A stretch of 64,000 bases of DNA from a virus. This document shows positions 1-30,903 of the stretch, one piece after another. A program made the translations under genes and the position numbers. The number at the start of each line of letters is the position of its first letter. Position 1 is the first letter of the stretch. Location: positions 1-64,000 of IMG/VR virus record IMGVR_UViG_3300032116_015796, one strand, 5' to 3'. The notes beneath the pieces were generated by a model, which made no database searches, was not told the DNA's origin, and saw nothing but the letters and a program-made list of their open reading frames with translations.

Positions 1-450
1 AATGGTGTTGGATTGGAAGTTATCCCCAATGGTGTTGTATTGGAAGAAATCTCCAATGGTGTTGTATTGGAAGTTATCCCCAATGGTGTTGTTAACGCCC
101 GACCCAATGTTGTTTTGATAGAAGTTACCCCCAATGGTGTTGGATTGAAAGTTAATCCCAATGGTGTTGTATTGGAAGTCATTCCCAATGGTGTTGGATT
201 GGAAGATATCCCCAATGGTGTTGGATTGGAAGTTATTCCCAATGGGGTTGGATTGGAAGTTATCCCCAATGGTGTTGTATTGGAAGTTATCCCCAATGGT
301 GTTGTTAACGAAGTCATTCCCAATGTTGTTTTGATAGAAGTTACCCCCAATGTTGTTTTGATAGAAGTTACCCCCAATGGTGTTGTATTGGAAGTCATTC
401 CCAATGGGGTTGGATTGGAAGTTATCTCCAATGGCGTTGAAGTTGAATCC
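1..450 (-). repeat. Imperfect ~30-bp coding tandem repeat (10-aa unit NTIGDNFQYN/S)
   Basis: Repeated unit aatggtgttg(g/t)attggaagttat(c/t)ccc, about 14 degenerate copies, no unique spacers. Confidence 0.9.
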
Positions 451-1959
451 ATCACAAGTATTAGATGAAAAATTGTTTCCAATTCTATTACCACTAAAAT
501 TATTTGTCCCAATAGTTAAATTGGTTCCAATAGTATTATTTCCAAAAACGTGTCCAATATTATTTTCGTAAAATTGTGAATATATGGTGTTATTATTATA
601 TCCGTTCCCGATTAAATTACGATAAAATTGTGAATAACTTTCATTACCATTATATCCATTACCAATATCGTTATTATAGAAGTCATTATAAATTTTATTA
701 TTATTAAACTGATTTCCTATTTCATTATTTTGAAAATCCCCGTTAGTGTAAACATTATCTCTAAAGTCATTTCCGATATTATTCCTATAAAAGGACCCAC
801 CAAGTAAAATATTAAACTCAAAATCACTACCAATTCGATTATTATTAAAATTTGACGTAATATAATTATTATTAAAGTTTTCCCCAATTATATTACCATC
901 AAAATCATCATTTGTTGAGTTGTTATAAAAACTATCACCTATTTGATTATTATCACAATCATCATTAAATGTGTTATTATAAGAACCATTACCAATGGTA
1001 TTGTTTCTAATTGCACCGTCAAGAAAAACATTGTTTGCCAAAAGAAAATCTCCTGTACCTTGTTCGATAAATAAATTGGCTTGGTTACCAATATAGTTGT
1101 TAACCGCACCATCAATAGCATCACCAAATGTTGTGTATTCAAAAACTTGGTCTTGCCTTACATTAGGTTGGTAATAACTCATTATACCATCATCATTTCC
1201 AAAATAATAAGGTGAATTACTGGTTTCATTTATTGTTACACCTGATATGATAGCCAAAGAATCACTCACAACAGATATAACTTCAAAAAATGAGGGATTT
1301 AAATTTTGTATCGAAACAATCGACCCTGAACCAAAATTTGAGTTAAATGTTGTACCAGTATCACCATATAATACACCAGTTGTCCCTGTTAAACCACTTA
1401 TTCCAACAAGACCACCTAATGGACTATTTTCTTCATATGAATACCCACGATATCTTTTAAATAAAATACTTCTGTTATCATAATCAGTTCTATTATTAAA
1501 GTTATCAATTCTTTCGGTAATTCTACCTTTTGCAAAACTATTCGTTATTTCAGTATTATTCCAAGTTATATCATATGATATTTTATCTTGTGGGTGTAAT
1601 GTTGAGTATACCGTAGGTGAGAATCCTGTTGTGGATACCGCCAATAATAAAATTGGTTCTGTTGTTCCTGTTTTATAGTTACCCGTTGTAATAGGGGTTT
1701 TAGTATTATCGTAGTTTGGTTGGTCATAACAAGTTTGAAAATCGGTAATTAAATAATATCCACCAGGTACTAAAGTTCCTCCTGTATATAATGAATATAA
1801 TTCATCGTAAGTTACTACTTCATAAGTTCCACCACCTGTTGATAGACCTGAATAAGGAATATGAAAAGTAAACCCACTTTGTTCAATAGCAAATAATGAA
1901 TTACTTGTTATACCTGTTGAAAGTGATAATTGACCTATTGTTTTTCCTGAAAGTATCAT
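1..1959 (-). CDS. Putative tail fibre/virion protein with long parallel beta-helix repeat region (3' end runs off window; absent from ORF track)
   Basis: ATG at 1959 opens a frame with no stop down to position 1 (MILSGKTIGQLSLSTG...YLITDFQTCYDQP...KGRITERIDNFNNRTDYD...). The C-terminal part is (N-T-I-G-x-N-F-Q-x-N)n, typical of beta-helix fibres. A late-type motif lies 15 nt upstream. Confidence 0.8.
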   Translation of the reverse strand, partial: MILSGKTIGQLSLSTGITSNSLFAIEQSGFTFHIPYSGLSTGGGTYEVVTYDELYSLYTGGTLVPGGYYLITDFQTCYDQPNYDNTKTPITTGNYKTGTTEPILLLAVSTTGFSPTVYSTLHPQDKISYDITWNNTEITNSFAKGRITERIDNFNNRTDYDNRSILFKRYRGYSYEENSPLGGLVGISGLTGTTGVLYGDTGTTFNSNFGSGSIVSIQNLNPSFFEVISVVSDSLAIISGVTINETSNSPYYFGNDDGIMSYYQPNVRQDQVFEYTTFGDAIDGAVNNYIGNQANLFIEQGTGDFLLANNVFLDGAIRNNTIGNGSYNNTFNDDCDNNQIGDSFYNNSTNDDFDGNIIGENFNNNYITSNFNNNRIGSDFEFNILLGGSFYRNNIGNDFRDNVYTNGDFQNNEIGNQFNNNKIYNDFYNNDIGNGYNGNESYSQFYRNLIGNGYNNNTIYSQFYENNIGHVFGNNTIGTNLTIGTNNFSGNRIGNNFSSNTCDGFNFNAIGDNFQSNPIGNDFQYNTIGGNFYQNNIGGNFYQNNIGNDFVNNTIGDNFQYNTIGDNFQSNPIGNNFQSNTIGDIFQSNTIGNDFQYNTIGINFQSNTIGGNFYQNNIGSGVNNTIGDNFQYNTIGDFFQYNTIGDNFQSNTI

Positions 1960-2004
1960 TTTTTTGTTTTTTATATAAATATTATATTTTGTTTATTAAT
2001 TAAG

Positions 2005-3687
2005 TTAACAAGAACCTGAAAATGTTAATGGGAACTGACAATCAAACGCGATAGTCCCTCCAGGACCTGTACCAACATATGTGTAAGTTCCGTCTGAAAA
2101 TATTAAACCGACAACACTTGTTGACCCGTTAAAATCAGTTATAGTATCATTAAGTTGTATTTGTAAAGTTTCTGGTGTTTGTATTAGTTGTAGTGAATTC
2201 GAATTTATTGATGTGGCGCCATTCCACAATGATGGGACTACAATGTTTCTAACACAATTAGGTGTTAATGTTGGGGTCGGTGTTGGGGTCGGTGTTGAAG
2301 AGATTGGGATAGTCGTATAAGATGGTGCTAAATTTGCTCCTAAATCAATTGAAACTGAAACAGTGGTTGTTTGTGAAAAAGGTGAATCAAAAGAACCACC
2401 AAAAATATTCCACCCTAAGAATTGATATCCTGGTTGTGGAACTGATTGAATACTATAAGACTGATTTTTATTTATTGTAAGTGTAGTGTCTGTTGTATAA
2501 GTAACCCCATCGAAAATTATTGATTGTCCTCCATTTATAGTTTGTATATATAAAGTTAATTCCGCTTGAGGTGTTGTTGAGGATGTTGGTGTTATTGTTG
2601 GTGTTGGTGATGGAGTCTCAGTATTTGTTGGTGTTGGTGTTGGTGTTGGAGTCTCAGTATTTGTTGGAGTAGGAGTTGGAGTTTCAGTATTTGTTGGAGT
2701 AGGGGTTGGAGGAACTTCAAATTGAATTTGAGTTGCCAAAATCGATATTGGAAAATCATTTGGTGAAATATTTCCAACAAATAGTTCTGCAGTTTTATTA
2801 AGTGAATCATAAGCTAATGATGGGTTTGTTACAATTGCTTGACCAACAACTTGATTTGGTAACATTATAACATTTGCCGTTACATCAATTGTTCCTCCAC
2901 CAACAAGTCCCAATCTAACAGTTAAAGGAATTGTTACATTGTAATTAATAGCGAAGTTAGAGTTTACGGTAAAAGTTGTAACCACAGAACCGCTAGATAT
3001 TTCGGTTGAAATTGTGTACTCAATTTCAGGGTCAACAAACATTAGATATTCATTTTCACCAACCTCAATATACTCATCGTTTTCAGTAATTATAGGATTA
3101 ATTAATTGTTGTATTGTTGTAGTTGTAGTTGTTGTAGGATTAAATGTAGTTGTAGTTGTTGTAGGATTAAATGTAGTTGTGGTTGTTGTAAAATTTGGGG
3201 TAGGTGTTGGTGGTGGACAAGTTGGACAACTTGGACATGGTGAAGTAGTGGTGGTTGTTGTAAAAGGCCCGTTTATACAACAAGGGAACTCTGATACATA
3301 ACAACTATCGTATGGTAAATCATCGGCAATGAAAGATTCTTGTATGTTGATGTAAAGTTTTTCTCTTATAGGTAAAATTAATACCCCATCATCATTTCTT
3401 AACATGAATTGACCTTCATATCGACCAACTTTATTAGTATCTCTATTTTGAAACTGATAATAAATGTAATATTCTGGTTCTGCGTTTGGGTCTATAAAAG
3501 TTTTCTCCACAAACCCTGCAGGTCTTGATGTTACTTTTGGAATACCTGTTGCAGTATCAACCATAGAAAAGAATATTGCAGACAATTCTATGGTCTTCAT
3601 AAAATTATCGAAATCACTTCTACCGTCTTTAACTACTTGTAATTTTAATAAAGGAAGAGTAGCATTTTTTTTAATGAAAAATTCCAT
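2005..3687 (-). CDS. Putative virion structural protein: BppU-like N-terminal domain, Thr/Pro-rich linkers, InlB-B/Flg_new-like repeat
   Basis: N-term FFIKKNATLPLLKLQV..YYQF...DT...GRYEGQF; (FNPTTTTTT)n and (PT)n tracts; YSIQSVPQPGYQFLGW. Confidence 0.55.
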   Translation of the reverse strand: MEFFIKKNATLPLLKLQVVKDGRSDFDNFMKTIELSAIFFSMVDTATGIPKVTSRPAGFVEKTFIDPNAEPEYYIYYQFQNRDTNKVGRYEGQFMLRNDDGVLILPIREKLYINIQESFIADDLPYDSCYVSEFPCCINGPFTTTTTTSPCPSCPTCPPPTPTPNFTTTTTTFNPTTTTTTFNPTTTTTTTIQQLINPIITENDEYIEVGENEYLMFVDPEIEYTISTEISSGSVVTTFTVNSNFAINYNVTIPLTVRLGLVGGGTIDVTANVIMLPNQVVGQAIVTNPSLAYDSLNKTAELFVGNISPNDFPISILATQIQFEVPPTPTPTNTETPTPTPTNTETPTPTPTPTNTETPSPTPTITPTSSTTPQAELTLYIQTINGGQSIIFDGVTYTTDTTLTINKNQSYSIQSVPQPGYQFLGWNIFGGSFDSPFSQTTTVSVSIDLGANLAPSYTTIPISSTPTPTPTPTLTPNCVRNIVVPSLWNGATSINSNSLQLIQTPETLQIQLNDTITDFNGSTSVVGLIFSDGTYTYVGTGPGGTIAFDCQFPLTFSGSC

Positions 3688-3735
3688 CCAATCTATTTTA
3701 TTCTATAAATACTTTACTTGTATAAAATAAACAGA

Positions 3736-5442
3736 TTAACTTTCTTTTCTTAATTTTCCATCATAGTGGTCAAATCGATTATGTTCAGTTGGTGTGAGTA
3801 ATAATAATCCTGATGATAAATTCCCTTTTATTGTTTCTTGAAACATGTGACTCATCCAAGTTTGTTCAAATGGATGACCCCACTTTGTTTCCAAGAACAT
3901 TTTTTTGTTACCTTCTTTTGAAACTATCTGAGGCCAATTACAATAATATACCTCTCCTAAAGCGTACGGAACATCTTTATGTATTTTAATCTTTGTAAAA
4001 ACTGTGTTTGGAGCATCAGGGTCTAAACCTAATTGTGGTAATGTTGGTTTTTCAGTCCAATGAGTTTCCCTGAAATTTTGTGGTACGTTATACCAACTCC
4101 ATTGAGTTGAGTTATTACCGAAAAATTCTGTGAAATTAAACTTTAAAAAATCTAATTCTTCTTTTTTAATAATTTCTAAAGATTTGTTAAACAAATTATT
4201 AACATATCTGTTAAAACCGTTTTTACAAGTTTCTCCAGGTTTTGGGTAAAAGAACATATCATCTTCAAAAAATAACATATATTCTAATTTTGTTTCATCA
4301 AAATGTTCTGCAATCCATTGTCTTCCACCACATATTCCTAAGTTATCCATTTTTATGTGGGTAAATCCGTAATCTTTACAAAGTTTTACATATTCAGGAG
4401 TTGTTGACAAATCAGTTGAGTTATCTAACAGGAATTTTTCTGTTTTATCTAAAAAGTCAGAATCATAATCTTCCATAGATTTAATTAAAGTCCTAAACTG
4501 ATTTGGACTATTAAAAGTTAAAACGTATAAACCTACCCCCTCAATTTGATTTTGTTTTATTGAATTTATTTTTTTAAGAATGTCTTTAGCGTCTTGTTTT
4601 TTTTGACCTTGTGTTTTAGTCACTAAAGAATCATTTTTCAAGTCTTCAAAAAACTTACCCACTAAACCATTTCCTTCAATTTCGAAATAGTTTATTAAAT
4701 TATGGTTTTTATATAACATTATTGAGAAGACAGATTCTTCAGTTCCCATATAACCTTTGGACAAAGTATCCTTCAATATAGAATAATATATTGTGTTAAT
4801 CTCACTTATACTATCTTTAGGTCCTCCAAAAAAACCTCCTCTTGGAACTAATTTTACATCATTACCCGCCCATTCATTTATTTTAGGATAACTAAAACCA
4901 TGGATTTCGTTATTTGCAATATATGGAAAACATACAAATGAAAATTTATTAATGTATTTGGTTAATTTGTCAAGTACTTTATCGTGTGTAAAATAACCTT
5001 GGTGAACGGTATTGGTAAGTCCCGCGTCAATCCAAAACATGTACTTAGAGTTGAACCTATCCAATAGTTTAGCATCGTGTAATAGAAAAACTTTTGACAT
5101 TACCAACGGATTGTACATCTCTAACTGAGCTTGGGTAGAATCTTTTAACCATCCAGCCTGATTAAACCATTTAGGGTCTTTTCTTATTTTTTGAATTAGT
5201 GGGTAAAATTCGTTTGTTTTAAACCAAGACTGATTTCTAACAATGAATTGAGTATTTGATTTATCTCTATGATGCCAAACAAATGACTCTAATTCAGGTT
5301 CTCCAAAAATAATCATTTTATTTTCAACCTTAAGTAATTGAGAAAACTTATCTTTATAGTGGTCAAACGACCTAGACCAACCTTCCTTAAGGTTATTTCT
5401 ACCTATATCCCATAACCCTGTTACAAGTGTAATTTCAGACAT
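3736..5442 (-). CDS. Two-domain glycosyltransferase (HtrL/YibB/WlaTC-like N-terminus plus GT-A domain)
   Basis: ITLVTGLWDIGR, FWIDAG and GGFFGG motifs; second domain with LLDNS...FFEDD. Confidence 0.7.
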   Translation of the reverse strand: MSEITLVTGLWDIGRNNLKEGWSRSFDHYKDKFSQLLKVENKMIIFGEPELESFVWHHRDKSNTQFIVRNQSWFKTNEFYPLIQKIRKDPKWFNQAGWLKDSTQAQLEMYNPLVMSKVFLLHDAKLLDRFNSKYMFWIDAGLTNTVHQGYFTHDKVLDKLTKYINKFSFVCFPYIANNEIHGFSYPKINEWAGNDVKLVPRGGFFGGPKDSISEINTIYYSILKDTLSKGYMGTEESVFSIMLYKNHNLINYFEIEGNGLVGKFFEDLKNDSLVTKTQGQKKQDAKDILKKINSIKQNQIEGVGLYVLTFNSPNQFRTLIKSMEDYDSDFLDKTEKFLLDNSTDLSTTPEYVKLCKDYGFTHIKMDNLGICGGRQWIAEHFDETKLEYMLFFEDDMFFYPKPGETCKNGFNRYVNNLFNKSLEIIKKEELDFLKFNFTEFFGNNSTQWSWYNVPQNFRETHWTEKPTLPQLGLDPDAPNTVFTKIKIHKDVPYALGEVYYCNWPQIVSKEGNKKMFLETKWGHPFEQTWMSHMFQETIKGNLSSGLLLLTPTEHNRFDHYDGKLRKES

Positions 5443-6071
5443 TATTTTTTATATTTACAAACCCAAACTACTTTGGAAAATTTATTTTGATTATAAAATT
5501 CTAATCCGTTCTCTTTGGATGCTTCGGAAATATCATCCTCAACAATCTCCAACCAATTCCATATCTTATTATTAATCTCCTTTTCAAATGTAGATTTATC
5601 CACACAATAGTCATGTGCCATTATAAAATCACCTTGTTTAATAAACTTAGACAATAAATTGAATTCTCCTATCTTCCATCCTCCATCACAAAGTACAATT
5701 GTAGTACCCTCTGAACGAATGAAATTTTTTATATCTTCAGGTACGTCTTTAAAGTCCCCAAAAATATCCTCGACCCTAACATCAATACCTTTTTTAACCA
5801 TGTCACTATACCAAGGTCTCGCACTTATATCAAAAGTTAGGATTTTTGTATTCAATTCTAATTCTTCAGTGATTGTTTTTAAAAACATTGTAAACCCACC
5901 TAAAGCAGTACCTATCTCTAATATTCTTTTTGGTTTTACTTCTTTAATAAAATCATAAAAAACTTGATAAACATCATGGAATTGTTGAGCTGAGTGCCCA
6001 TCAAAAGAAGACAAACTGTCGTTTGCCAATAAATTTGTTTTTTTTGTTATTCTTTGTTCTATAGTTTTCAT
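5442..6071 (-). CDS. Class I SAM-dependent methyltransferase (Methyltransf_24/CmcI-like), probable sugar O-methyltransferase
   Basis: ILEIGTALGG motif I; LCDGG...HD. Confidence 0.75.
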   Translation of the reverse strand: MKTIEQRITKKTNLLANDSLSSFDGHSAQQFHDVYQVFYDFIKEVKPKRILEIGTALGGFTMFLKTITEELELNTKILTFDISARPWYSDMVKKGIDVRVEDIFGDFKDVPEDIKNFIRSEGTTIVLCDGGWKIGEFNLLSKFIKQGDFIMAHDYCVDKSTFEKEINNKIWNWLEIVEDDISEASKENGLEFYNQNKFSKVVWVCKYKK

Positions 6072-6084
6072 AATAAAAATATAA

Positions 6085-6792
6085 TTAAAATCTTATGTGT
6101 GTAACTCCTGTATTAGCAACAAACTTAAAAAAATTTCGTAACTCAAACATTTTTTTCCAGTCCATAACCATTTTAGCATCCACTGCTGACATACCAATCT
6201 CAACCCCCTCAGCGAATGCCCATATATCATTTTTAACCCCAAACTCATTTCGTTCTTTCCATTTTTGAACGAAGACTTTTAATTTTTGATTATTTTTAAA
6301 AACTAAAAATTGTTCATTTACTACTTGAGCGTTATCATAAAAATTAGTTTTTAATAAACCGTAAGGTTCTACTTTGTGTCTCCAAAAACACTTCTCAATG
6401 TCCCACTTACTACTACCTATTGAGTGAGGTCTTTCGTAGATAAAATCAAACTGTGATTTGTTCATCGAATTTAAAAAATCAACAAATTTATTTTCACTGT
6501 AACCATCATGAATATCCCAATCCGCATCAAAAAAAATAATAAACTCAAAATTTCTTTTTGAGCATTCCATAACAGGAATATATTTTAAATTATAGTTAAA
6601 GTAATTTTTTATTGTGGTAGTCTCTTTTTTATCAAAGTTGATAAAATCAACGTTTTCAATTTCAACAAAGGGACAATCGGTTACTATTATTATTTTATGA
6701 CCTTTAGAAATCTTATTTAAATTTCTCGCAAAATTACAAGCACTTAAAAAATATTTTTTACCTATCGCAATTGTTGTAAAAACGTAACTCAT
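6085..6792 (-). CDS. Putative GT-A glycosyltransferase
   Basis: TTIAIG..Y, IIVTD, FFDAD (DxD); operon context. Confidence 0.55.
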   Translation of the reverse strand: MSYVFTTIAIGKKYFLSACNFARNLNKISKGHKIIIVTDCPFVEIENVDFINFDKKETTTIKNYFNYNLKYIPVMECSKRNFEFIIFFDADWDIHDGYSENKFVDFLNSMNKSQFDFIYERPHSIGSSKWDIEKCFWRHKVEPYGLLKTNFYDNAQVVNEQFLVFKNNQKLKVFVQKWKERNEFGVKNDIWAFAEGVEIGMSAVDAKMVMDWKKMFELRNFFKFVANTGVTHIRF

Positions 6793-7481
6793 AATTTATC
6801 CGCAATTTTTAATGTTTCGGGATTAGACGGACCGTTATCATGTACAATAATTGGGTTAAACCTTTCGATAAAAATTTTACCATTTTTTATCTGAACGTGT
6901 TTTTTAGAATTTAAAGTACTCATAAAAAATTCACAGTCAGAATCAATTATAATATCATCATTCAGTAAGAACTGAATTGTCCATTTACCTTGGTCATCAA
7001 TTCCTGTATCATAAACATTATTAATAATACTTTTCATATGATTCAGTACTTTTTCAGTGTATCCGAAATAAGTTCCTGAGTTCAAATATCTGTATTCTGA
7101 GTTTATTTGTTTCTTATTATATAAATGGGTATACGAATTGGGTGGCCATAAACATTGTTCTGCACCCATAATAATTGAACAATTTTTTGATTTAAATTTT
7201 TCGATTATATTTTTTGGTGAAGAATAGAAATTTGTGTCTGTAGCGTCTAAGAAAAGTATAAATTCATATTTACCTAAAATATTTTGTTCTAAATACTCAT
7301 ACAATTTTACTATTTTATAAAAATATAGTTTATCGTAATAAGAATCACTATTACAAATACCATTGTATCTTACTACGTGTATATCTGAATTCTCAAAATA
7401 GTTTAAAGCATTCTTAACAAAAATAGGGGTATAATTTGAGGGGTAGTCAAATAATACTGTGATTAATGCAATGTTTTTCAT
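6789..7481 (-). CDS. PLOD/LH3-type glycosyltransferase domain protein
   Basis: FLDATD, GAEQCLWP, YRYLNSGTYFG, DDQ and HDNG match the procollagen lysyl hydroxylase GT domain. Confidence 0.75.
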   Translation of the reverse strand: MKNIALITVLFDYPSNYTPIFVKNALNYFENSDIHVVRYNGICNSDSYYDKLYFYKIVKLYEYLEQNILGKYEFILFLDATDTNFYSSPKNIIEKFKSKNCSIIMGAEQCLWPPNSYTHLYNKKQINSEYRYLNSGTYFGYTEKVLNHMKSIINNVYDTGIDDQGKWTIQFLLNDDIIIDSDCEFFMSTLNSKKHVQIKNGKIFIERFNPIIVHDNGPSNPETLKIADKL

Positions 7482-8722
7482 AAATTACCGACTAATCTCT
7501 CACACCAACCTTTAGATACTGAGTGAGGCCAAACAACCCAATATTTAGGTTTTTCTTTAGCGTTAAACTCTCTCCATATTTTACAGTACTTGTCAGGGTC
7601 GGTCATCATTCTGTTTATTTCATTAATATCAGCATCTCTTCTGAAAATTGTTTCATCTTTTTCATCATGGAAAGCAACAACCCAAAAATCGTAATCTGTT
7701 TCAGGTACTTGACTAAAACTAACATCAATACAGTGTTTAAATATTGAAAGGAAACTATCTTCCCATTCTTCTTCTGTTTGGTAAATTGTTGGATTAGGGG
7801 GGTAGTTTTTATCTAAAGTGTATTGTTGTACGGCTCTTTTAGAAAATCTTAAACCTGAGTAAATCTCATAATCTTTTAAGGTTCTCTCAGTTCCGAAACC
7901 GTGGTTTCCGAAATCAATGGCGGTTTCTCCATCCATACCAAATAGTTGTCTATTCTTTTTATGAGAACTTTCATTTTTCTTAAACCACTCTTTATCGTCA
8001 TCCCACTGTTTGGTTCTATTTTTTCTTGTGTATTCATGCCAAATAACAGTTCTATGTGGATGAAACAAATCATACCCGTGAGTAAATGCTCTTACCGCAA
8101 TTGATATCTCTTCCCCATGAAAATAAAATTCAGGGTCGTGTTGTACTTCTTTAGCAAATTGTCCTAAAGTAAAACAGAAGTGTGCAGAATAAAATCTTGC
8201 GGGTACTGGTTCTGTTAATTGTCCCCATCCAGGGATTGTTTCAGGTAAGAAAAATACCGCTCCTTCGGGAATAAATCTATCAAAAGCCATTCTCCATGGT
8301 TCTTTAACTCTACCTTGAGGGTCGTTATCAGGGTCAAATGATGAAACATAAGAAGTTAGTAAAGGTTTTTCAAACCCTTTTTCTTGTAATTGTTTAATCA
8401 TGTTAATTAGTGTCTCATCCCAATCCTTATCAAATCTCATATGAGAATCTAATTGTAATGTGTACTCTTCGTCTTGATATAATTGTTGTACTTTATTTCT
8501 TGCCCAACAAACTCCTTTTGATTCTGAGTACAATACATTTTCGACTCTAAATCTATGGTCAAGTTCAAATTCTGTTAAGTCGTCAAATTTGTCATCTGGA
8601 TGATATTGTCGACATATTCCTACTCTTAAATTTTCAGGGTATTTTGCATTTTCCAACATGTTATTTAATGTTGGTATAAGTTGTGGGTCTCTATAAGAAG
8701 CAATTTGGATAAAAATTTTCAT
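7478..8722 (-). CDS. GT60 / GlcNAc-transferase family (Gnt1/OGNT-like polypeptide alpha-GlcNAc transferase) with extra C-terminal domain
   Basis: IFIQIASYRDPQL, GVCWAR, LQLDSHMRF..WD, FHGEEI..AVRAFTHGYD, IWHEY. Confidence 0.85.
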   Translation of the reverse strand: MKIFIQIASYRDPQLIPTLNNMLENAKYPENLRVGICRQYHPDDKFDDLTEFELDHRFRVENVLYSESKGVCWARNKVQQLYQDEEYTLQLDSHMRFDKDWDETLINMIKQLQEKGFEKPLLTSYVSSFDPDNDPQGRVKEPWRMAFDRFIPEGAVFFLPETIPGWGQLTEPVPARFYSAHFCFTLGQFAKEVQHDPEFYFHGEEISIAVRAFTHGYDLFHPHRTVIWHEYTRKNRTKQWDDDKEWFKKNESSHKKNRQLFGMDGETAIDFGNHGFGTERTLKDYEIYSGLRFSKRAVQQYTLDKNYPPNPTIYQTEEEWEDSFLSIFKHCIDVSFSQVPETDYDFWVVAFHDEKDETIFRRDADINEINRMMTDPDKYCKIWREFNAKEKPKYWVVWPHSVSKGWCERLVGNL

Positions 8723-8769
8723 TTTTATTTTAATGATAAAAAAATAAAAACAAAACTCAATAAATCTTT

Positions 8770-10596
8770 TTAAATTCCTCCTCCGTCAGTTATTGTCCAT
8801 AATTTTGTTCCTGTTAGGTATGTTCTACTTGCACCTGCAGTTGAAATCGTGTATATAGAGCTTCCTCCATCAAATGACACTCCTGATTGTAATGAGCCAC
8901 CTAAAGATGCCCACCCATTTAGTAAAGAATCATAGTTTACGGTTGATAATGTTATACCGTTAAACATTGCCGTCATATTTGTTACATTAGAAACATTCCA
9001 TCCACCTAAATTTTGGTCAAATAAATTGGCAGATTGGAACATAGAGCCCATATCGGTTACAGACGAGACATCCCAACTACTAATATTTTGGTTAAAGTTT
9101 GTTGTGTTACCAAACATCGTAAACATATTGGTAACAGACGAAACATTCCAACCACCAATTGGTTGATTAAAAGGGGTATTATAGAACATATACTCCATAT
9201 TTGTAACTACTGAAACATTCCATAAATTTATACCTAAAGAACCTCCGTTGTTAAAACTTGTAGCATTACCAAACATAAAATACATATTTGTAACTGAAGA
9301 TACATCCCATAAACTAATATCTTGATTGAATACACTCGCTTGTGCAAACATTGTAGACATATTAGTAACCGAAGAAACATCCCAATTTCCAAGTGGTTGA
9401 TTAAATGATATTGCATTTGTAAACATACCCCCCATATTTGTAACATTAGAAACATTCCATGTATTAATATTTTGATTAAACATATTTGTACCACCAAACA
9501 TTACGAGCATTGACGTTACATTTGACACGTCCCAACTTCCAATATATTGATTAAAGTTAGACGCATTCTGAAACATAGTACCCATATTGGTTACAGATGA
9601 AACATCCCAACTATCCATATTATTAACAGTTGTTAAACTTGAACATGATGCGAACATTGAATATAAGCTTGTAATACCTGTCAAATCAGGTGTATCAGTA
9701 ACTCCCGTTAAAACCAAGTTAGTACACGCATTAAACATCGATGCGTTTGAATTAGACTCCCCTCTTAAAGGTCCCCATTTTATAATTTCTTTTATATTAT
9801 CTTTATATAATGTTGCATGAGTCGCAAAATTCCAACCTTCAATTGTTCCTGTAATTGTAATTGTATAATCACCAGGTGACGCGTAAGTGTGAGTTCTATT
9901 GGCGTATGAGTTAACAGATGTATTACCATCACCCCAATTAATTATTCCCGAATAAGTTCCTGTTGGTGAGTACGGAAGTTCAATTGTAGTTGACGCAGAC
10001 CATACTGAAATAAATGCAAAAGGTAATGGAGATGGAGTTGGTGTTAACGTAGGAGTCACAGTTGGGGTAGGGGTTGGTGTCATTGTTAGGGTAATTGTGG
10101 GTGTTGGTGTCGGTGAAAGAGGGGGTGGTAATGGTTCACAAGCACCCATAACACAAGGAATTCCAACCGATATTAAAACCCCATCCTCTGCGGTAGGTAA
10201 TTTCCCACAAAATAATAATTCGGTTGTACCGTCAATTAACCCATAGAATATTGTCCCGTTACATTGAGTATAACTAAAATCTTTCTTTACTGTGGTTATA
10301 TTACTAAACTGAATACAATTACATTGAGCAATTGTTGGTGTAGGAGTCATTGTTGGTGTCATTGTTGGTGTAGGAGACGGACAACTATACAGTTGAAAAA
10401 ATTCACAACCGTTAGAATCTATTAATTTAACTATAACAGAACTAACACTATCTAAAGGATAAACTAAAGTATATAGAAAATTTGGAGGAATATTAATCCC
10501 GACACCTGCCGACGCACAATATGTTAGAGTCGAATCACAAACATATACATCGTAAGGTCCCGTACCAGTTGCTCCTGTTATTTCTATTGTCTGCAT
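8770..10596 (-). CDS. DUF285/BspA-family leucine-rich repeat protein with PKD-like domain and PT-rich linkers (putative virion adhesin)
   Basis: About 8-9 copies of the 25-aa WDVSSVTNMxxMF...FNQxIxx repeat; INWGDG...HTYASPGDYTITI. Start refined to ATG 10596. Confidence 0.85.
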   Translation of the reverse strand: MQTIEITGATGTGPYDVYVCDSTLTYCASAGVGINIPPNFLYTLVYPLDSVSSVIVKLIDSNGCEFFQLYSCPSPTPTMTPTMTPTPTIAQCNCIQFSNITTVKKDFSYTQCNGTIFYGLIDGTTELLFCGKLPTAEDGVLISVGIPCVMGACEPLPPPLSPTPTPTITLTMTPTPTPTVTPTLTPTPSPLPFAFISVWSASTTIELPYSPTGTYSGIINWGDGNTSVNSYANRTHTYASPGDYTITITGTIEGWNFATHATLYKDNIKEIIKWGPLRGESNSNASMFNACTNLVLTGVTDTPDLTGITSLYSMFASCSSLTTVNNMDSWDVSSVTNMGTMFQNASNFNQYIGSWDVSNVTSMLVMFGGTNMFNQNINTWNVSNVTNMGGMFTNAISFNQPLGNWDVSSVTNMSTMFAQASVFNQDISLWDVSSVTNMYFMFGNATSFNNGGSLGINLWNVSVVTNMEYMFYNTPFNQPIGGWNVSSVTNMFTMFGNTTNFNQNISSWDVSSVTDMGSMFQSANLFDQNLGGWNVSNVTNMTAMFNGITLSTVNYDSLLNGWASLGGSLQSGVSFDGGSSIYTISTAGASRTYLTGTKLWTITDGGGI

Positions 10597-10600
10597 AATT

Positions 10601-11074
10601 TTACGAACATTGTGTTGGAGTTGGTGTTGTAGTTTTTGTTGGTGTTGGTGTTGGTTTAGATGGTAAGCAACCACAAGGGTTTGTACAACTTACAGTTGGT
10701 GTTGGTGTCGGAGTTGGTGTTACTGTATTTGTTGGTGTCACGCTTGGTGATGGACTTATACAAGGTGTTAATGTCGGGGTGACTGAAGGTGTTAATGTCG
10801 GAGTTGGTGTTTGTGTCTTTGTTGGGGTAATTGTAGGTGTCGGTGTAGGTGTTGGTCTTGGTACGTTTAAATAATACACACAATTATTGAACAATGTTGT
10901 TATAGTATATATACCATATATTTCTTGTGGTGGATTAAGTAATCCTGCATTAAAAGTAAACGGTAATTCGTGGTCACCTAAATTCAAAACTAATTCAGTC
11001 CCCTGTGGATTGAACAAAATGTTTGCAATCTCACCATCATAATTTATACTTTGTATTGTAATAATTTGATTCAT
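10601..11074 (-). CDS. Small PT-rich putative virion protein
   Basis: ~70-aa beta-rich N-term followed by (PT)n tract; tightly packed with neighbours. Confidence 0.65.
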
Positions 11075-11077
11075 TAA

Positions 11078-14000
11078 TTAAAAATTGTTTTCTATTGCTA
11101 GACAGACTTCACCGTTCTCGTTTATTAATCTCTGCATATCAGAGAAACTAATAAAGGCATAACCATTTTTGCCCCAAGAGCGTCCCCAACTGTTTTTAAT
11201 TCTAAATAGTTTAGTTCTTAAATCAACCCCATTTATAACATAAGCATGACCACCAACTATTCTTCCATTCACCTTTATTAATCCATTTTTATTTGGTCTA
11301 AACATACCTTGATACCAATTAGTACCAACTACAACAGGTCCTTTAACTAAAACTGTATTAATCAAAACCGCAAGGTCATATGTCCATAAATAAGATGATA
11401 TTCTTCCTGTGTTTTTCAAAAACTTAGCTCCACCTCTTACCGATGTTCCGTCATAGTTTTCGCCAAACCACTCATCTAATTTTTGAGCTTGTTTATAAAT
11501 TGTTGTTGGGTTTACTATCGGGGGGACTCCTCCGTGTTTAATAGGTCCATCTTCAATCCAATGAGCCCAAGCGTAACCAACACATTGTGGAGTACTTCCT
11601 TGATTTCCCCACCATTCCTCAGAATCCCAGTATTTTGAAGTCAATGTTGTTGGTCTGAATTGCAATTTATTTTCGATTAAGAACAATCTATCTCTTTTAT
11701 CTTCAATATAAACTCTTCCTAATGGTAAAGGTTCGGTCGTTGTTGTAGTTGTGGTAGGATTGAAAGTTGTAGTAGTTGTTGTTGGGTTAAATGTTGTTGT
11801 GGTTGTTGTAGGATTGACAGTAGTAGTTGTTGATGTTGGTGTATCCCCTGTTGTGTAATTAAAATCATCTGGTAGACATACTAAAGTTGAGCAATCAGGA
11901 CAATCAGGATTAAACATCCTAAAAGTGTTTTTTAACAACAAGAAGTTATGTTTCACTTCAGGAGCCGAAAGAGGTGTGATATACATTCTAAATTGTGAAA
12001 TCGCGCCTTCAAAAGTTCCTGCAAAATTTTGTTCTATTTGGATGTTAGTTTTTAATCCGTTTAAAGAAGTTCCTGTCAAATCATTAGTCGGGAAATTTTC
12101 AGGGTCTTGTTGGTAAGGTCCGAAATATAAAATTTCTTCTCTAGTCACCAAAGTCAAAGTATTTGTATTAGACGGATTTGTTATTACGGGAGTGTCATTC
12201 CAATGAGCAATTAGTACTCCTGATTCATTATTTAAGTTAGTTAATATTTGAGGTTCACCAAAACAATCTATATAGTCAATGTCAGTTGTTACATCACCAA
12301 TTGAATAGTTCCAAACTGAACATGCTCTGAATGTTAAGTTTTCTCTTAACCCTTGAGTTCCTCCACCCCAAGACACGTTGAAAGGAACTCCAACTTGTTT
12401 TTCTTTATCGGTGTTTAGTGCTCTTGGGATTATTTCCTCAAAATCTTCTATAGTCCAAAATAACTTACCATTGATATAAATTTTAAGTCTTCCTTTTCTA
12501 TATTTTTTTTCTAATAACCATTTCTCATTAAGATTTACAATTTCAATTTTTTCCGCCTCTTCCGCTTCAGGACGAGTATATGGTACGGTAATTAGTGAGG
12601 AAGTATTATTCGCTAAAGATTCTAAATATAACTTTTTAGTTATATCACCTAAACCTCCTCGATACCATAAATCACAATCATCAAACCAAGTATATCTTTC
12701 CCATACGGCATCGATTTGAAACCAATGTTCCAAATCTAACCATGCGGGGTTAATTTCAAAACAATCAGGATATATTGGAGGTGAACAGTAATCTAAAACA
12801 GTATAACCAGTTGTATAGGTTACCCCTGTAGTAGAACAAGAACCTGTTGTTTCACAGTCTCCTGTAAATAATAAAACTCTAACCCCTATCTGAGGGTTTT
12901 TAGGTTCTCCACATAATCTAAATGATAAAGCGTTAGACATTGCATCATATAAAGGGTCTTTTTCACAAGTGTCCTCAATTGACGTAAATCCCGTATTAAC
13001 ATTACAAGGTAAACAATCATTACATGTATTACACTTAGTACATGAAGGTGTACAAACAGGTGGTAAAATGCAACCGTCAGATATTGGTGTAGGACTTGGT
13101 GTTGGAGTTGGCGTTGGAAAAATAATAGAATCACATTTATGTGTCTGACATTCCCACCCACACGATTCACATCTTATTTCTCCACATCCACATCCACATG
13201 AAATACTTTTTTGAGCATTACCCTTACACTTATCACAACCATAATTAACATGAGTGTCATGTATTCCTCCTTCAGACCTTGGTGGATAAACAAAAATACA
13301 ACGACTATTTGTTATTGTTTTGTTACAACAAGCACAAGTTGTTAAACCTGATAATGGGGTAGTTATACGAGTATATCCTGTGAAACAATTTGGAGTTCCG
13401 TCAGCATGATGATAAAATTTATTTTCGGCTCTTGTTCCAAAATAAAAGAAAGTGTTTTTATTATTAGGATAAATTTTATTTAATGTTGTCTCACCAGGTC
13501 CTGGAAAATATTCATTAATTAACCTTGGTTTCAATATCATTTCAACTGACCAACCTTTGTTCATCCTTTCAGGAAAAATATCATAATCATATCCGAACAA
13601 CCTATAAAATCCTTGATAGAATCCACCATATAGTTCATGGTATCTACCTTCAAACGGACTAAATTTACTTACCACTTCATAAAGTACAACGTCAGGAAAA
13701 CCTGAAAATCTAACAATATCATTACCTGTATTTGCGGTAACTTGAAAAAGTTTTAGTCTTCTGTCAAAACTTAATCTATCAAATTTTTGAGTGTTATTTA
13801 GTAAACCTTCAGTAAACGTTATTGTTTGTCCTGTCATATATTCCACAAGACCGTTATCAACTCCTGTTAATCCTATATCACAAGAAGTGGATGAGGACAA
13901 ACATTTTAAATCAATTTCTTTTGGGTTGTAATAATTTTGGGAAACAAAAACATTGTTTTTATTATAGTTTTTGTAAGTAAGAGTTAAATTCTGTGCAGTT

Positions 14001-14188
14001 TCAATATTATTAATGTCGAAATAAAAAGGTAATCTATTACCATGTGTTTGGGCAATTAAATAAGGAGAGAAAACAACCTCCTGATTAAAATCCATTTCAT
14101 CATTAGTCAATGACATATCATGTGTATCCAAAGATAACTTCGGAAACAAATTAGGTCTAGCATATTGATTTATATTTTGACTCGCCAT
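11078..14188 (-). CDS. Large Cys-rich virion-type protein with split LamG-like domain, Thr-rich linker and C-terminal papain-like (C1) cysteine peptidase
   Basis: RLKIYINGKL, FEGAISQFRMYITPLS (LamG-like); NQGSTPQCVGYAW, GGHAY, IKNSWGRSWG (C1 catalytic Gln/Cys/His/Asn). Confidence 0.75.
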   Translation of the reverse strand: MASQNINQYARPNLFPKLSLDTHDMSLTNDEMDFNQEVVFSPYLIAQTHGNRLPFYFDINNIETAQNLTLTYKNYNKNNVFVSQNYYNPKEIDLKCLSSSTSCDIGLTGVDNGLVEYMTGQTITFTEGLLNNTQKFDRLSFDRRLKLFQVTANTGNDIVRFSGFPDVVLYEVVSKFSPFEGRYHELYGGFYQGFYRLFGYDYDIFPERMNKGWSVEMILKPRLINEYFPGPGETTLNKIYPNNKNTFFYFGTRAENKFYHHADGTPNCFTGYTRITTPLSGLTTCACCNKTITNSRCIFVYPPRSEGGIHDTHVNYGCDKCKGNAQKSISCGCGCGEIRCESCGWECQTHKCDSIIFPTPTPTPSPTPISDGCILPPVCTPSCTKCNTCNDCLPCNVNTGFTSIEDTCEKDPLYDAMSNALSFRLCGEPKNPQIGVRVLLFTGDCETTGSCSTTGVTYTTGYTVLDYCSPPIYPDCFEINPAWLDLEHWFQIDAVWERYTWFDDCDLWYRGGLGDITKKLYLESLANNTSSLITVPYTRPEAEEAEKIEIVNLNEKWLLEKKYRKGRLKIYINGKLFWTIEDFEEIIPRALNTDKEKQVGVPFNVSWGGGTQGLRENLTFRACSVWNYSIGDVTTDIDYIDCFGEPQILTNLNNESGVLIAHWNDTPVITNPSNTNTLTLVTREEILYFGPYQQDPENFPTNDLTGTSLNGLKTNIQIEQNFAGTFEGAISQFRMYITPLSAPEVKHNFLLLKNTFRMFNPDCPDCSTLVCLPDDFNYTTGDTPTSTTTTVNPTTTTTTFNPTTTTTTFNPTTTTTTTEPLPLGRVYIEDKRDRLFLIENKLQFRPTTLTSKYWDSEEWWGNQGSTPQCVGYAWAHWIEDGPIKHGGVPPIVNPTTIYKQAQKLDEWFGENYDGTSVRGGAKFLKNTGRISSYLWTYDLAVLINTVLVKGPVVVGTNWYQGMFRPNKNGLIKVNGRIVGGHAYVINGVDLRTKLFRIKNSWGRSWGKNGYAFISFSDMQRLINENGEVCLAIENNF

Positions 14189-14237
14189 CTTTTTTATGAT
14201 AAATACACCAAAACGAAGTATTTATTGATAAAAAAGA
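14189..14237. promoter_or_regulatory. Divergent pair of late-type motifs forming an inverted repeat
   Basis: cttttttatgataaatac ... gtatttattgataaaaaag; GTATTTAT on each gene's sense strand 10-13 nt before the ATG. Confidence 0.6.
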
Positions 14238-16927: not shown

Positions 16928-18148
16928 ATGTCTAAAAAAATTAATGTTTTAATACTTCCATCAGATAAAACTGGTGTTGGTAAATTCCGCTCTGTAGACC
17001 CTCATATTATGCTACAAAACTTATATCCTGATGATTTTCATGTGGATATTGATTATGAACCTAGAATAAATGACCCTAATTTTTGGAAAAAGTACCAAAT
17101 CGTACACGTTCACAGAAACATTGGAGTTAACTACGACCAAACTCCTCATTTAATTAAATCTCTTAAAGAGATGGGTATCATTGTGATTGTTGATATTGAT
17201 GATTATTGGTTACCAACTAAAGAACATCCAATACACTCTATAATTTTACATGATAAAATTCATGAGAAAATTGTCGCTAATCTTAGAGTTGCAAGTTACG
17301 TAACTACAACAACAAAAATATTTGCTGACGAAATTCGCAAATTTAATAAAAATGTTGTCGTTTTACCGAACGCAATTAATCCTGATGAACCTCAATTCAA
17401 CCAACCAACAGAAGAATCTGATAGAATTAGAGTGGGTTGGTTAGGGGGGTCTTCCCACTTACACGATTTAAAACTTTTAGACGGTTTCATCTCAAAAAAT
17501 GGTTCTGAGATTAACAATAAATTACAATATGTTATTTGTGGTTTTGATACAAGAGGTTCTGTAACTGAAATAGACCAAAAAACAGGTCAAAGAAAACAAA
17601 GACCTATTCGACCTGAAGAAACTGTTTGGGCAAGGTATGAGGAAATTTTTACAAACAAATACGGCATAATTGATGAAAACTATAAAAAGTTCTTATTAGA
17701 ATTTAAAGAACAAGAATATGTTGGTGACAGTACGTTACCGTATCGAAGAGTTTGGACAAAACCTGTTAATCAATATGCAGCAAATTATTCTAAATTTGAT
17801 ATTTCATTAGCACCAATTAAAAATCACATTTTTAACAGAATGAAATCTCAACTTAAAGTTATTGAAGCGGGATTTTATAAAAAAGCATTAATTGCATCCC
17901 AAGTAGGTCCTTATACAATTGATTTAAAACACGCGTTAAAAGAAGGTCAATTTACTGATGGTAATGCTTTGTTAGTTCAAGAGGCACGAAATCATAGTGA
18001 TTGGTCTAAGTACATTAAAAAATTGGTACAAAACCCAAATTTAATTACTGACTTGGGAGAAAGACTATATGAAACAGTTAAGGATACCTATCACTTGAAA
18101 AACGTGACAATAACAAGAGCAGAATTTTATAAATCTATTGTTAACTAA
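16928..18148 (+). CDS. GT-B (GT4-like) glycosyltransferase
   Basis: VDIDDYW, VLPNAI, VGWLGGSSH, DISLAP...FNRMKSQLKVIEAG. Confidence 0.8.
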   Translation: MSKKINVLILPSDKTGVGKFRSVDPHIMLQNLYPDDFHVDIDYEPRINDPNFWKKYQIVHVHRNIGVNYDQTPHLIKSLKEMGIIVIVDIDDYWLPTKEHPIHSIILHDKIHEKIVANLRVASYVTTTTKIFADEIRKFNKNVVVLPNAINPDEPQFNQPTEESDRIRVGWLGGSSHLHDLKLLDGFISKNGSEINNKLQYVICGFDTRGSVTEIDQKTGQRKQRPIRPEETVWARYEEIFTNKYGIIDENYKKFLLEFKEQEYVGDSTLPYRRVWTKPVNQYAANYSKFDISLAPIKNHIFNRMKSQLKVIEAGFYKKALIASQVGPYTIDLKHALKEGQFTDGNALLVQEARNHSDWSKYIKKLVQNPNLITDLGERLYETVKDTYHLKNVTITRAEFYKSIVN

Positions 18149-18149
18149 T

Positions 18150-18623
18150 ATGGAATCACCAAAAAAAATAATAGGGTTTACCGCAGGTAATTTTGATTTA
18201 TTACACCCTGGATACATTTATACTTTTGAAACTGCGAAACAACATTGTGATTATTTTATGGTATTTCTTCAGAGAGACCCTTCTGAAACCAGATTTACCA
18301 AATACAAACCTGTAATCCCACTTTATGAAAGATATAAAACTTTAATGTCAATAAAATATATTGATGAAGTTGTAACATATCAGACTGAAGAGGATTTGGT
18401 TAAATTAATTGAATTTTATAGACCTGACGTAAGAATACTTGGTGATGATTATATTGGTAAAAGATTTACAGGAGACCATTTACCTATTAAAGTTATTTAC
18501 ACAACCCGTTCACATAATTGGTCAACCACAAAAATTAAAGATTTGATAACAATACAAACTATCAAACAAAATCCTGAGATTTTAAATAAATTAGAAGATT
18601 ATGATAAAAATACCAATAACTAA
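18150..18623 (+). CDS. Cytidylyltransferase (TagD/RfaE-like)
   Basis: AGNFDLLHPG (HxGH-like), ER...L.SIKYIDEV, GDDY, STTKI. Confidence 0.85.
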   Translation: MESPKKIIGFTAGNFDLLHPGYIYTFETAKQHCDYFMVFLQRDPSETRFTKYKPVIPLYERYKTLMSIKYIDEVVTYQTEEDLVKLIEFYRPDVRILGDDYIGKRFTGDHLPIKVIYTTRSHNWSTTKIKDLITIQTIKQNPEILNKLEDYDKNTNN

Positions 18624-19323
18624 AATTTTATTTTTAGATATCGAGACCGTTGGGTGTTGCCCTGATTACGAAGTTTGCCAAAACTTAAATTCTAGTATGG
18701 CCAATCAATTTGAAAAATATTTTGATTGGTTTTTAAAACGATTTCCTGAAGACAACCAACTTGGTATGGAATCTTTAAATTCACAAATGAACGAGGTCTT
18801 TAAAAAACGAGCGGGTCTTGTTCCTGAATTTGCTAAAATTGTTTGTGTGAGTATGGCCTTTGTTATGGATAATGGAGAAGTCAAAAAACAAACATTTGCA
18901 AGTGACGATGAAAAAGAAATTTTAACCCAAGTTCAAAAATTATTAATTAGATGTGGTAATTTAGATTTCTTTTTATGTGGACATAACCTGAAAAATTTTG
19001 ACATCCCTATGTTGGCAAAAAGAATGATTATCAATGGTTTAGTCCCACCTCCAATTCTTCCTTCATACGATACCAAACCTTGGGAGATAAAGGCAATTGA
19101 TACTAAAGAGATTTGGCAATATGGAGCGTATTCCTCAATAGGTTCGTTAGATTTATTATGTACTTGTTTGGGTATTGAGTCTCCTAAAGACGGTGAAATT
19201 ACTGGTGATAAAGTTCATCAGGCGTATTGGGAAGGAAATAAATTGTCTGAAATTTCACAATATTGTGAAAAAGATGTTAAGGTATTAATAGACATCATTA
19301 AAAAATTAAAAGAGTTACAATGA
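18601..19323 (+). CDS. PolB-like DEDDy 3'-5' exonuclease
   Basis: FLDIET, GHNLKNFDIP, YCEKDV. Confidence 0.85.
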   Translation: MIKIPITKILFLDIETVGCCPDYEVCQNLNSSMANQFEKYFDWFLKRFPEDNQLGMESLNSQMNEVFKKRAGLVPEFAKIVCVSMAFVMDNGEVKKQTFASDDEKEILTQVQKLLIRCGNLDFFLCGHNLKNFDIPMLAKRMIINGLVPPPILPSYDTKPWEIKAIDTKEIWQYGAYSSIGSLDLLCTCLGIESPKDGEITGDKVHQAYWEGNKLSEISQYCEKDVKVLIDIIKKLKELQ

Positions 19324-21400: not shown

Positions 21401-21402
21401 AT

Positions 21403-26744: not shown

Positions 26745-26746
26745 AA

Positions 26747-27370: not shown

Positions 27371-27387
27371 TAAACTCAATTTGAATT

Positions 27388-28176: not shown

Positions 28177-28187
28177 AAAAAAACAAT

Positions 28188-30899: not shown

Positions 30900-30903
30900 A
30901 AAA

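Follow-up and report, generated by a model that had tools for sequence, protein, structure and literature searches.

What do sugar transferase genes do in the midst of threonine- and proline-rich phage proteins? This question is raised by the first 64 kb (hereafter the window) of an 80,256-bp virus contig from IMG/VR (IMGVR_UViG_3300032116_015796), in which five genes for putative sugar-modifying enzymes, here called the cassette (3736-8722), lie beside genes whose products carry tracts of Pro-Thr dipeptides, (PT)n, or of threonine. A preliminary description of the window had proposed a mucin-type O-glycosylation system for the virion, initiated by a member of glycosyltransferase (GT) family 60 (GT60). 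All of the open reading frames (ORFs) it named were recovered at their coordinates on the minus strand, and its reading as a whole was partly supported. On balance, we lean towards the view that the cassette is a phage-encoded, cytoplasmic system for mucin-type O-glycosylation of the phage's own tract proteins.

A GT60 enzyme with the fold of mucin-type transferases

The gene at 7478-8722 (minus strand) encodes a soluble GT-A glycosyltransferase of the GT60 family (PF11397), and we propose that it is the initiating polypeptide N-acetylhexosamine (HexNAc) transferase. The protein matches the Pfam family 'GlcNAc' with E 1.3e-71 (242.4 bits, cut-off 21), PF11397 scores 201.5 bits in a six-frame search, and phrog_24687 is matched with E 5.5e-171. 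Across an alignment of 34 GT60 homologues sharing 35-50% identity, D92, H94 and H229 are invariant; the first two form the DxH motif of GT60 and the third is its downstream histidine. DxH...H is the Mn2+-binding pattern of GT27 and GT60 enzymes. The AlphaFold (AF2) model has a predicted local distance difference test (pLDDT) score of 96.2, and its top Foldseek matches in the PDB are GalNAc-T1/T2/T4/T7/T10/T12, PGANT9 and TgGalNAc-T3 (E 1e-10 to 2e-8). Its structural neighbours are thus almost exclusively mucin-type polypeptide N-acetylgalactosamine (GalNAc) transferases (ppGalNAc-Ts). The family assignment is strong by hidden Markov model, by the invariant DxH...H residues and by this nearest fold, and the label 'GT60-like' given in the preliminary description was correct.

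GT60 is known as a protist family that initiates mucin-type O-glycans with N-acetylglucosamine (GlcNAc) on Ser/Thr-rich domains, as reviewed in PMC8724618. We found no characterised bacterial or phage GT60 enzyme in the literature searched. Searching PDB sequences with the GT60 protein, and with the HtrL-type protein that closes the cassette, gave no matches, so neither has a solved close relative. Residues ~320-414 of the GT60 model form an additional, separate beta-rich C-terminal domain of ~95 aa, and Pfam does not report a ricin domain in the protein; the GT60 family is set apart from GT27 by lacking a C-terminal lectin domain of the ricin type (PMC8724618). A Kyte-Doolittle scan, which is crude, detected no transmembrane-like segment in any cassette protein, GT60 included; the acceptor would therefore be cytoplasmic.

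GT60 behaves as a core gene, conserved like the capsid and terminase genes. Its identity among relatives is 74-83%, and with its homologue in the complete 322-kb relative G001 it is 80%, compared with 77% for the major head protein, 81% for the terminase and 65% for the HtrL-type protein. Relatives of the gene occur at 369 loci in IMG/VR, and at least 7,418 close relatives are present in the protein collection. We also observed giant proteins of up to 2461 aa with three to four tandem GT60 domains (P0122, P0123, P0125 and others).

A conserved frame around a hypervariable island

The remaining four cassette genes follow GT60 on the same strand. The gene at 6789-7481 (minus strand), which overlaps the GT60 stop by 4 nt, encodes a PLOD-type GT-A glycosyltransferase (Pfam GT_PLOD, E 3.6e-20). 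It is a proposed elongating enzyme, and a counterpart is found in only a few relatives. It is followed at 6085-6792 (minus strand) by a GT-A-like protein with a DAD motif that has no Pfam or NCBIfam match. This protein shares 22% identity with ORF331 of phage XacN1 (E 8e-7), and ESM Atlas features, which serve as a lead only, place it near viral clusters in which a minority of members carry GT8, Nucleotid_trans or TOD1_MUCI70 annotations. The earlier label of 'DxD GT' is plausible from the motif and these weak GT-A leads. The product of 5442-6071 (minus strand) is a sugar O-methyltransferase of the CmcI/rhamnosyl O-methyltransferase type (Pfam RMNT_CmcI, E 3.2e-9); the NCBIfam rhamnosyl O-methyltransferase model is matched at E 6.7e-6, which is under its cut-off. 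These three genes belong to a variable island, and both the PLOD-type enzyme and the methyltransferase had been named correctly. The last gene, 3736-5442 (minus strand), encodes a two-domain protein with an HtrL/WlaTC-type transferase at aa 1-255 and a GT2-like C-terminal domain. Its N-terminal half matches Pfam HtrL_YibB (E 3e-16) and, under the cut-off, TIGR02192 (E 1.5e-21), so that the HtrL part of the earlier 'HtrL+GT-A' assignment stands; for the C-terminal half, the GT2-like clusters are an ESM Atlas lead only. The preliminary description had also supposed that the glycan is extended and methylated, and the enzyme genes for both steps (GTs and an O-methyltransferase) are present; the steps themselves are predicted.

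We compared gene order in the best 80 of the 369 IMG/VR GT60 loci. They share a common frame of a tract protein, GT60, variable genes, the HtrL-type protein, which is the conserved 3' end, and a homologue of the gene at 2005-3687. The island within this frame comprises 101 gene clusters at 50% identity. Its contents are mostly GT25, GT34, GT10, GT11, GT2, GT7, PLOD-type GTs and several methyltransferase families, with carbamoyltransferase, DegT, nucleotidyltransferase and GNAT genes in addition. All five genes of the cassette as first described are present in the same orientation, but the data are better described by a hypervariable island set in a conserved GT60...HtrL frame than by a fixed five-gene set. 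An opposite-strand homologue of the window gene 48592-49311 (endonuclease VII-like, phrog_1035) is inserted precisely where the HtrL-type gene adjoins the homologue of 2005-3687 in loci L025, L035, L053, L068, L071 and L073, which suggests that a mobile nuclease borders the variable island.

Tract proteins at both flanks of the cassette

Strong tracts occur in only five of the ~81 ORFs of the 80-kb contig, and four of the five genes flank the cassette. As had been described, (PT)n tracts are present in the products of 2005-3687, 8770-10596, 10601-11074 and 11078-14188, and poly-Thr is present in two of them, 2005-3687 and 11078-14188, as runs of 6-7 residues in a 9-residue FNPTTTTTT unit. The 27-nt sequence coding for this unit (repeat family D7) has three copies in each of the two genes, with 80% nucleotide identity between the genes.

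The 560-aa candidate acceptor encoded at 2005-3687 (minus strand), downstream of the cassette, has an Ig-like N-domain resembling BppU-N (nt 3283-3687), then TTTTTT/FNPTTTTTT repeats (nt 3115-3261), and then variable domains linked by PT tracts (nt 2569-2712 and 2269-2301). The N-domain comprises the first 135 residues, ends in FPCC[VI]NGP and shows 62-90% identity in 33 relatives. Poly-Thr directly follows it in most homologues, even where the distal domain differs; in one relative that domain is a C1 peptidase. The AF2 model of the N-domain is an Ig-like sandwich (pLDDT 74), which in BFVD has BppU-N as well as minor tail and baseplate proteins among its best matches (E 1e-4; named BppU entries, E 2.5e-4 to 1e-3) and, by VIA-align, includes the baseplates of 80alpha (Z 8.1), TP901-1 (Z 7.8) and NF5 (Z 7.5) and the N-terminal part of TP901-1 ORF48 (Z 6.9).

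Three further candidate acceptors (all minus strand) lie upstream of GT60. The nearest, the 608-aa product of 8770-10596, consists of an N-domain of ~75 aa, PT linkers (nt ~10327-10388 and 10036-10121) and DUF285/BspA-type repeats (Pfam DUF285, E 1e-83). The 157-aa product of 10601-11074 consists of a 72-aa N-domain and an 85-aa PT-rich tail (nt 10604-10858); its homologues in relatives are 161-592 aa long, and the G001 copy, 58% identical, also has tracts. The 1036-aa product of 11078-14188 begins with a large N-terminal region, a Cys-rich stretch and a PT linker (nt 13085-13117). A second domain comes next, followed by FNPTTTTTT repeats (nt 11735-11842), and the C-terminal part is a papain-like C1 peptidase (nt 11090-11722), identified by Pfam Peptidase_C1 (E 1.2e-6), phrog_16701 (peptidase, E 3.6e-55) and cathepsin B-like PDB entries (E 1.7e-5). 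The fifth tract gene, 57297-58436 (minus strand, 379 aa, tract at nt 58122-58304), lies between the terminase large subunit and portal genes, as the preliminary description had noted, and G001 has a tract protein at the same position (248311-248985).

The placement of tracts recurs among relatives. In 61 non-redundant loci, tracts were found in 39 of 51 genes upstream of GT60 (76%) and in 28 of 55 genes after HtrL (51%), compared with none of 305 cassette genes and 44 of 428 other nearby ORFs (10%). A codon-pattern search for poly-Thr (ACN x6) in five large relatives matched a reversed control pattern equally often, and poly-Thr in relatives was read instead from the translated complete relative G001. 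An anchor domain, a tract and a swappable distal domain are the build expected of particle appendages, and the tract proteins may be such appendages, although this build is not proof.

The gene at 1-1959 (minus strand; >653 aa) is truncated, since base 1 is the contig end, and its homologue comes after the 560-aa gene in relatives. It lacks Thr/Pro tracts and has a 9-residue NNxIGxxFx periodicity that probably forms a beta-helix-like fibre. A 27-nt tandem periodicity (window 1-510, minus strand) is visible in the DNA as 12-14 copies of families D1/D2, and the opposite frames are also open.

A late-type operon

The genes from 14188 to 3736 are separated by overlaps of 1-4 nt or gaps of 3-48 nt, and there is no intergenic terminator-like site inside this operon. 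From this tight spacing and the missing terminator, the GTs are most likely co-transcribed with the tract genes. A promoter-like RTATTTAT motif (14199-14206, minus strand) heads the operon, 11 nt before the start of its first gene, 11078-14188. Further copies lie at 3705-3712 (before 2005-3687), 1975-1982 (before 1-1959), 58442-58449 (before 57297-58436) and 60230-60237. Of the 81 genes, 18 have the motif in the sense direction before their start, at a distance of 12-40 nt (mostly 12-31), compared with 4 in antisense. The genes that it precedes include 11078-14188, 2005-3687, 1-1959, 57297-58436, the terminase, the prohead protease and other late genes; it precedes no GT gene. Its total is not enriched (22 found, 22 expected), and only its placement and orientation before starts are non-random. 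Scans for sigma-70 promoters and intrinsic terminators gave background levels. The earlier claim that the cassette sits in a run of putative virion genes is a deduction rather than an observation; a shared late-type motif, a BppU-like N-domain and a modular, fibre-like build speak for the tract proteins as possible particle parts.

The same frame in cultured phages and in bacteria

Among isolated phages in the collection searched, only the Xanthomonas jumbo phage XacN1, Xoo-sp13, and the Stenotrophomonas phages CM1 and RAS14 have a GT60 gene. The GT60...HtrL frame is present in XacN1, Xoo-sp13 and CM1 (50%/43% identity). In XacN1 the order is ORF334 (GT60, 50% identical), a carbamoyltransferase, two ORFs and ORF330 (HtrL-type, 43% identical over its full length). 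In all three phages, a giant ORF of 3148-3315 aa is the sole carrier of a Thr-containing Pro/Thr/Ser tract in the ~40-kb neighbourhood. It is annotated beside baseplate wedge genes in XacN1 and Xoo-sp13; the CM1 record has no annotation. The XacN1 copy is ORF325, and its PT tracts lie close to the C-terminus. According to the XacN1 authors, purified virions contain at least two Schiff-stained glycoprotein bands, which they propose are made by phage GTs (PMC5852040). The supplement of the same report does not match these bands to named proteins, and neither the GT60 family nor its HtrL partner nor the candidate tract acceptors were noted by its authors (PMC5852040). By way of the common frame, the bands may be taken as indirect support for glycosylated virions. 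The tight link of GT60 with Thr/Pro-tract genes, which the preliminary description had proposed to test across related phages, recurs in the 61 loci and in the Xanthomonas/Stenotrophomonas phages; adjacency is looser in G001, where tracts are dispersed.

GT60 is also widespread in bacteria (577 confirmed loci; 4,740 clusters at E<=1e-3), often with an HtrL-type gene as its partner. The GT60 and HtrL-type pair is found in Gemmatimonadota, Lewinellaceae, Cytophagaceae, Rhodobiaceae, Neisseriaceae, Vicinamibacterales, Bryobacteraceae and others (L104-L183), and the conserved unit is this pair, not GT60 alone. Neighbours of bacterial GT60 genes include small PT-mucin-like proteins in Acidimicrobiaceae, Prosthecobacter and Congregibacter, KKPTPPPTTT repeats in Ginsengibacter and, in Achromobacter, a protein with a very long TP run that reads as VgrG-like. 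In Burkholderiales, a conserved GT60 neighbourhood (L155 15049-17520; L125, L153, L154) contains a homologue of the 676-aa protein encoded by the phage at 67385-69415, and an 823-aa protein nearby, which also reads as VgrG-like, has an uninterrupted 73-residue TP-repeat run.

Proposed mechanism and competing explanations

Gene order within phages, together with a single published stain of a cultured relative, lends good support to a functional link between GT60 and the tracts; the glycan itself is predicted. In the mechanism that we propose, the soluble, retaining GT-A enzyme GT60 would prime late, modular, fibre-like proteins of the phage by attaching a first HexNAc, probably GlcNAc, to threonines of their (PT)n and FNPTTTTTT linkers; peptides representing these proposed acceptor tracts are FNPTTTTTTFNPTTTTTT and (PT)6. 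The conserved two-domain HtrL-type transferase would then attach the next sugar or sugars, and the swappable GTs, O-methyltransferases and similar enzymes encoded between GT60 and HtrL would complete a glycan particular to the strain. The outcome would be stalks that are stiff, coated in sugar and resistant to proteases, with distal domains (DUF285/BspA repeats, C1 peptidase and others) carried on anchors; at least one anchor is similar to baseplate BppU. Such a coat may serve stalk rigidity, masking or adhesion.

Several observations weigh against this mechanism. Many relatives have the cassette beside an apparent DNA polymerase gene and not beside structural genes. The complete relative G001 has ~13 tract proteins dispersed over its genome, and its homologues of 11078-14188 and 10601-11074 lie ~30 kb from GT60, so PT tracts may be general linkers of this lineage. 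Adjacency of tract genes to the cassette is therefore frequent, not obligatory. The 80 related loci are phylogenetically non-independent, and the tract counts drawn from them are not independent events. The tract proteins are putative virion members, and generic Ig-like folds (plexin IPT, GH9 N-domains and antibody V domains) match the 2005-3687 N-domain with Z 6.5-8.0, overlapping the baseplate scores. In bacteria, a PT protein with multiple tracts lies no more than 10 kb from GT60 in only 7 of 66 loci. Among these 66 loci, seven of nine multi-tract proteins lie within 4 kb of GT60 against an expected 46%, which is not significant (p=0.055); given this value and the small number of loci, we do not claim a general bacterial association.

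The dispersed linkers of G001 would also suit a different role, in which the cassette and a second sugar locus of the window make or alter a non-protein glycan (host lipopolysaccharide (LPS), capsule or another envelope glycoconjugate) against superinfection and the tracts are unrelated linkers. Iyer et al. interpret jumbo-phage GT clusters as modifiers of envelope glycans (PMC7824862), the name HtrL/YibB derives from an LPS-core locus, the second locus (18-33 kb) resembles an O-antigen sugar pathway in its DegT, PglD-like, WbqC, GT2 and GT4 genes, and a hypervariable GT content is typical for surface-polysaccharide loci. We nevertheless regard this role as rather unlikely. The fold neighbours of GT60 act on polypeptides, not on lipids or oligosaccharides; as a core gene, GT60 is conserved to the degree of the capsid gene, unlike an accessory moron; co-transcription of the cassette is most likely with late, not early, genes; and tracts are enriched exactly at both of its flanks. 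Moreover, beside the lack of transmembrane segments in the cassette, G001 encodes no polytopic Wzx/Wzy/PGT-like protein: by the same crude hydropathy scan its maximum is five transmembrane-like segments, in a 201-aa protein, and the host could supply such enzymes.

Polypeptide acceptors other than the tracts have a precedent of their own. Dictyostelium Gnt1, the best-studied cytoplasmic GT60, acts on a hydroxyproline of Skp1. By this precedent the phage enzyme could modify a hydroxyproline; it could also act on capsid, sheath or other phage structural proteins, or on a host protein in order to take over the cell. The richness of the tracts in Pro and the many bacterial GT60 loci without a nearby tract protein, which are the majority, are compatible with this. 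Such a target seems improbable to us. The prolyl 4-hydroxylase-type domain PF13640 was found in none of five records (the contig and four relatives, two of them at 100% and 91% completeness) whereas control genomes were positive, so that the hydroxyproline route was set aside for want of a phage-encoded enzyme, a host enzyme being possible. In addition, the TTTTTT units, which have no Pro spacing, are the most position-conserved feature beside the cassette, and mucin-type transferases, which have the nearest folds, prefer Thr with flanking Pro. Glycosylation of phage DNA (hypermodified bases) against restriction, finally, is a common role of phage GTs; DNA-glycan GT arrays differ among related phages, according to work cited in PMC12619734, and the apparent DNA polymerase gene beside many cassettes would suit this role. 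We consider it very unlikely, given the polypeptide-transferase type of the GT60 fold and the late-type operon position of the cassette. The PF00303 homologue tested, from relative G003, is a thymidylate synthase by the NCBI equivalog models (330 bits, cut-off 325; 319 bits, cut-off 108), and this thyA-like gene was accordingly rejected as a sign of a DNA-glycosylation route. No second, hydroxymethylase-like PF00303 paralogue was seen, other base-modification routes lying outside the search.

Comparison with known glycosylation systems

Glycosylation of the phage's own tract proteins would have its closest enzymatic parallel in protists. Like Dictyostelium Gnt1 and the Dictyostelium and Trypanosoma cruzi polypeptide alpha-GlcNAc-transferases, the phage enzyme belongs to PF11397, has a GT-A fold with DxH...H and has candidate Ser/Thr/Pro-rich acceptors at hand. 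Like Gnt1, it is soluble and without a membrane anchor, and putative multi-domain elongating GTs are encoded next to it, as PgtA acts after Gnt1 in Dictyostelium. It differs in being encoded by a bacteriophage for the bacterial cytoplasm, in its extra ~95-aa beta-rich C-terminal domain, in the absence of a prolyl hydroxylase partner and in its pairing with an HtrL-type transferase; donor and acceptor are predicted.

To our knowledge, self-glycosylation of phage particles is documented only in some mycobacteriophages and hinted at in XacN1. In mycobacteriophages, virion O-glycosylation was reportedly described by Freeman et al. in 2023, with GTs that are not GT60 and with the C-terminal tails of capsid and tail-tube subunits as acceptors. 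In both systems phage GT genes adjoin the genes for acceptors, here candidate acceptors in one operon with the flank enrichment given above, and glycosylation would take place in the host cytoplasm ahead of assembly. In contrast, the system described here has a GT60 initiator, its predicted acceptors are internal mucin-like linkers of modular fibre-like proteins, and its glycan island is hypervariable. The ORF334-ORF330 region of XacN1 is alike in that GT60 and HtrL-type genes frame other sugar genes and a giant PT-tract protein is encoded beside the baseplate genes; the region belongs to another phage lineage with a gammaproteobacterial host and has other middle genes, such as the carbamoyltransferase. 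Giant viruses (chlorovirus capsid and mimivirus fibril glycans) also bring virus-encoded, host-independent sugar synthesis and GT sets. These decorate surface proteins of the particle, as is proposed here, and include DegT, acetyltransferase and methyltransferase genes like those of the second sugar locus of the window, but the hosts of giant viruses are eukaryotes, their GT families are others and their linkages are N-linked or otherwise atypical.

Source phage and other features of the window

The contig is 27% complete according to CheckV, which implies a jumbo phage with a genome of ~300 kb. It has a GC content of ~31%, and PHROGs matches identify a terminase large subunit (58449-60215), a portal (55445-57256, minus strand), a prohead protease (53213-53935) and a major head protein (49381-51258). 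The source is an uncultured jumbo phage of Bacteroidota, and its close relatives show binning with metagenome-assembled genomes of Saprospiraceae and other Bacteroidia. A further host clue may lie in secreted phage proteins with signal peptides and C-terminal tails that, as read from the sequence, resemble the sorting domains of the Bacteroidota type IX secretion system; they are encoded at 47502-48602 (plus strand) in the window and at 72158-73896 (minus strand) of the contig, past the window end. A published comparison lineage consists of large aquatic phages with predicted Flavobacteriia hosts and four core glycosyltransferase groups (PMC12619734).

The portal has an unusual low-complexity C-terminal tail of poly-Pro/Gly/Glu stretches (APPPPPGGEEGGAPPPPPPPPPGGESG). 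In two relatives, the thymidylate synthase gene is broken into separate frames (G001 5332-7607; G004 199944-202823), which suggests an intron, an intein or a homing-endonuclease insertion. The second sugar locus, which is larger than the cassette, extends over ~15 kb of the window (18138-32776, plus strand) and is interleaved with phoH. It includes a cytidylyltransferase, a double GT2 protein (497 aa), DegT fragments, two hexapeptide (PglD-like) acyltransferases, CmcI-type and FkbM-type methyltransferases, BKACE, WbqC, GT4 and more GT2 genes. Its products may provide unusual amino-sugar donors, either for the glycan of the cassette or for a different one.

Implications

Our analyses add several elements to what was known of such loci: GT60 and a two-domain HtrL-type transferase framing a hypervariable island, with the same frame in XacN1; the enrichment of tracts at the cassette flanks; an Ig-like N-domain with BppU anchors among its nearest matches; and a motif common to tract, terminase and protease genes. 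A broader proposal is possible, and we offer it tentatively. A mucin-type O-glycosylation core may be present both in an abundant aquatic jumbo-phage lineage and in the Xanthomonas/Stenotrophomonas jumbo phages, where GT60 and HtrL would coat the stalks of appendages, a recombining GT/methyltransferase island would diversify the glycan, making it a virion 'glycocalyx' under diversifying selection, and the same pair would serve Thr/Pro-tract proteins in bacteria.

If the system is real, it would be common in lakes and oceans, given the 369 IMG/VR loci and at least 7,400 metagenome relatives. It would extend mucin-type O-glycosylation to the viruses of bacteria and would account for the 'beads-on-a-string' proteins with Thr/Pro tracts that large phages encode. 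A soluble, single-subunit polypeptide HexNAc-transferase would also be of use for bacterial glyco-engineering. Overall, the phage would possess a variable surface trait affecting adsorption, particle stability and recognition, and the mucin-type systems of protist GT60 and animal GT27 would have a counterpart in the world of prokaryotes or their phages.

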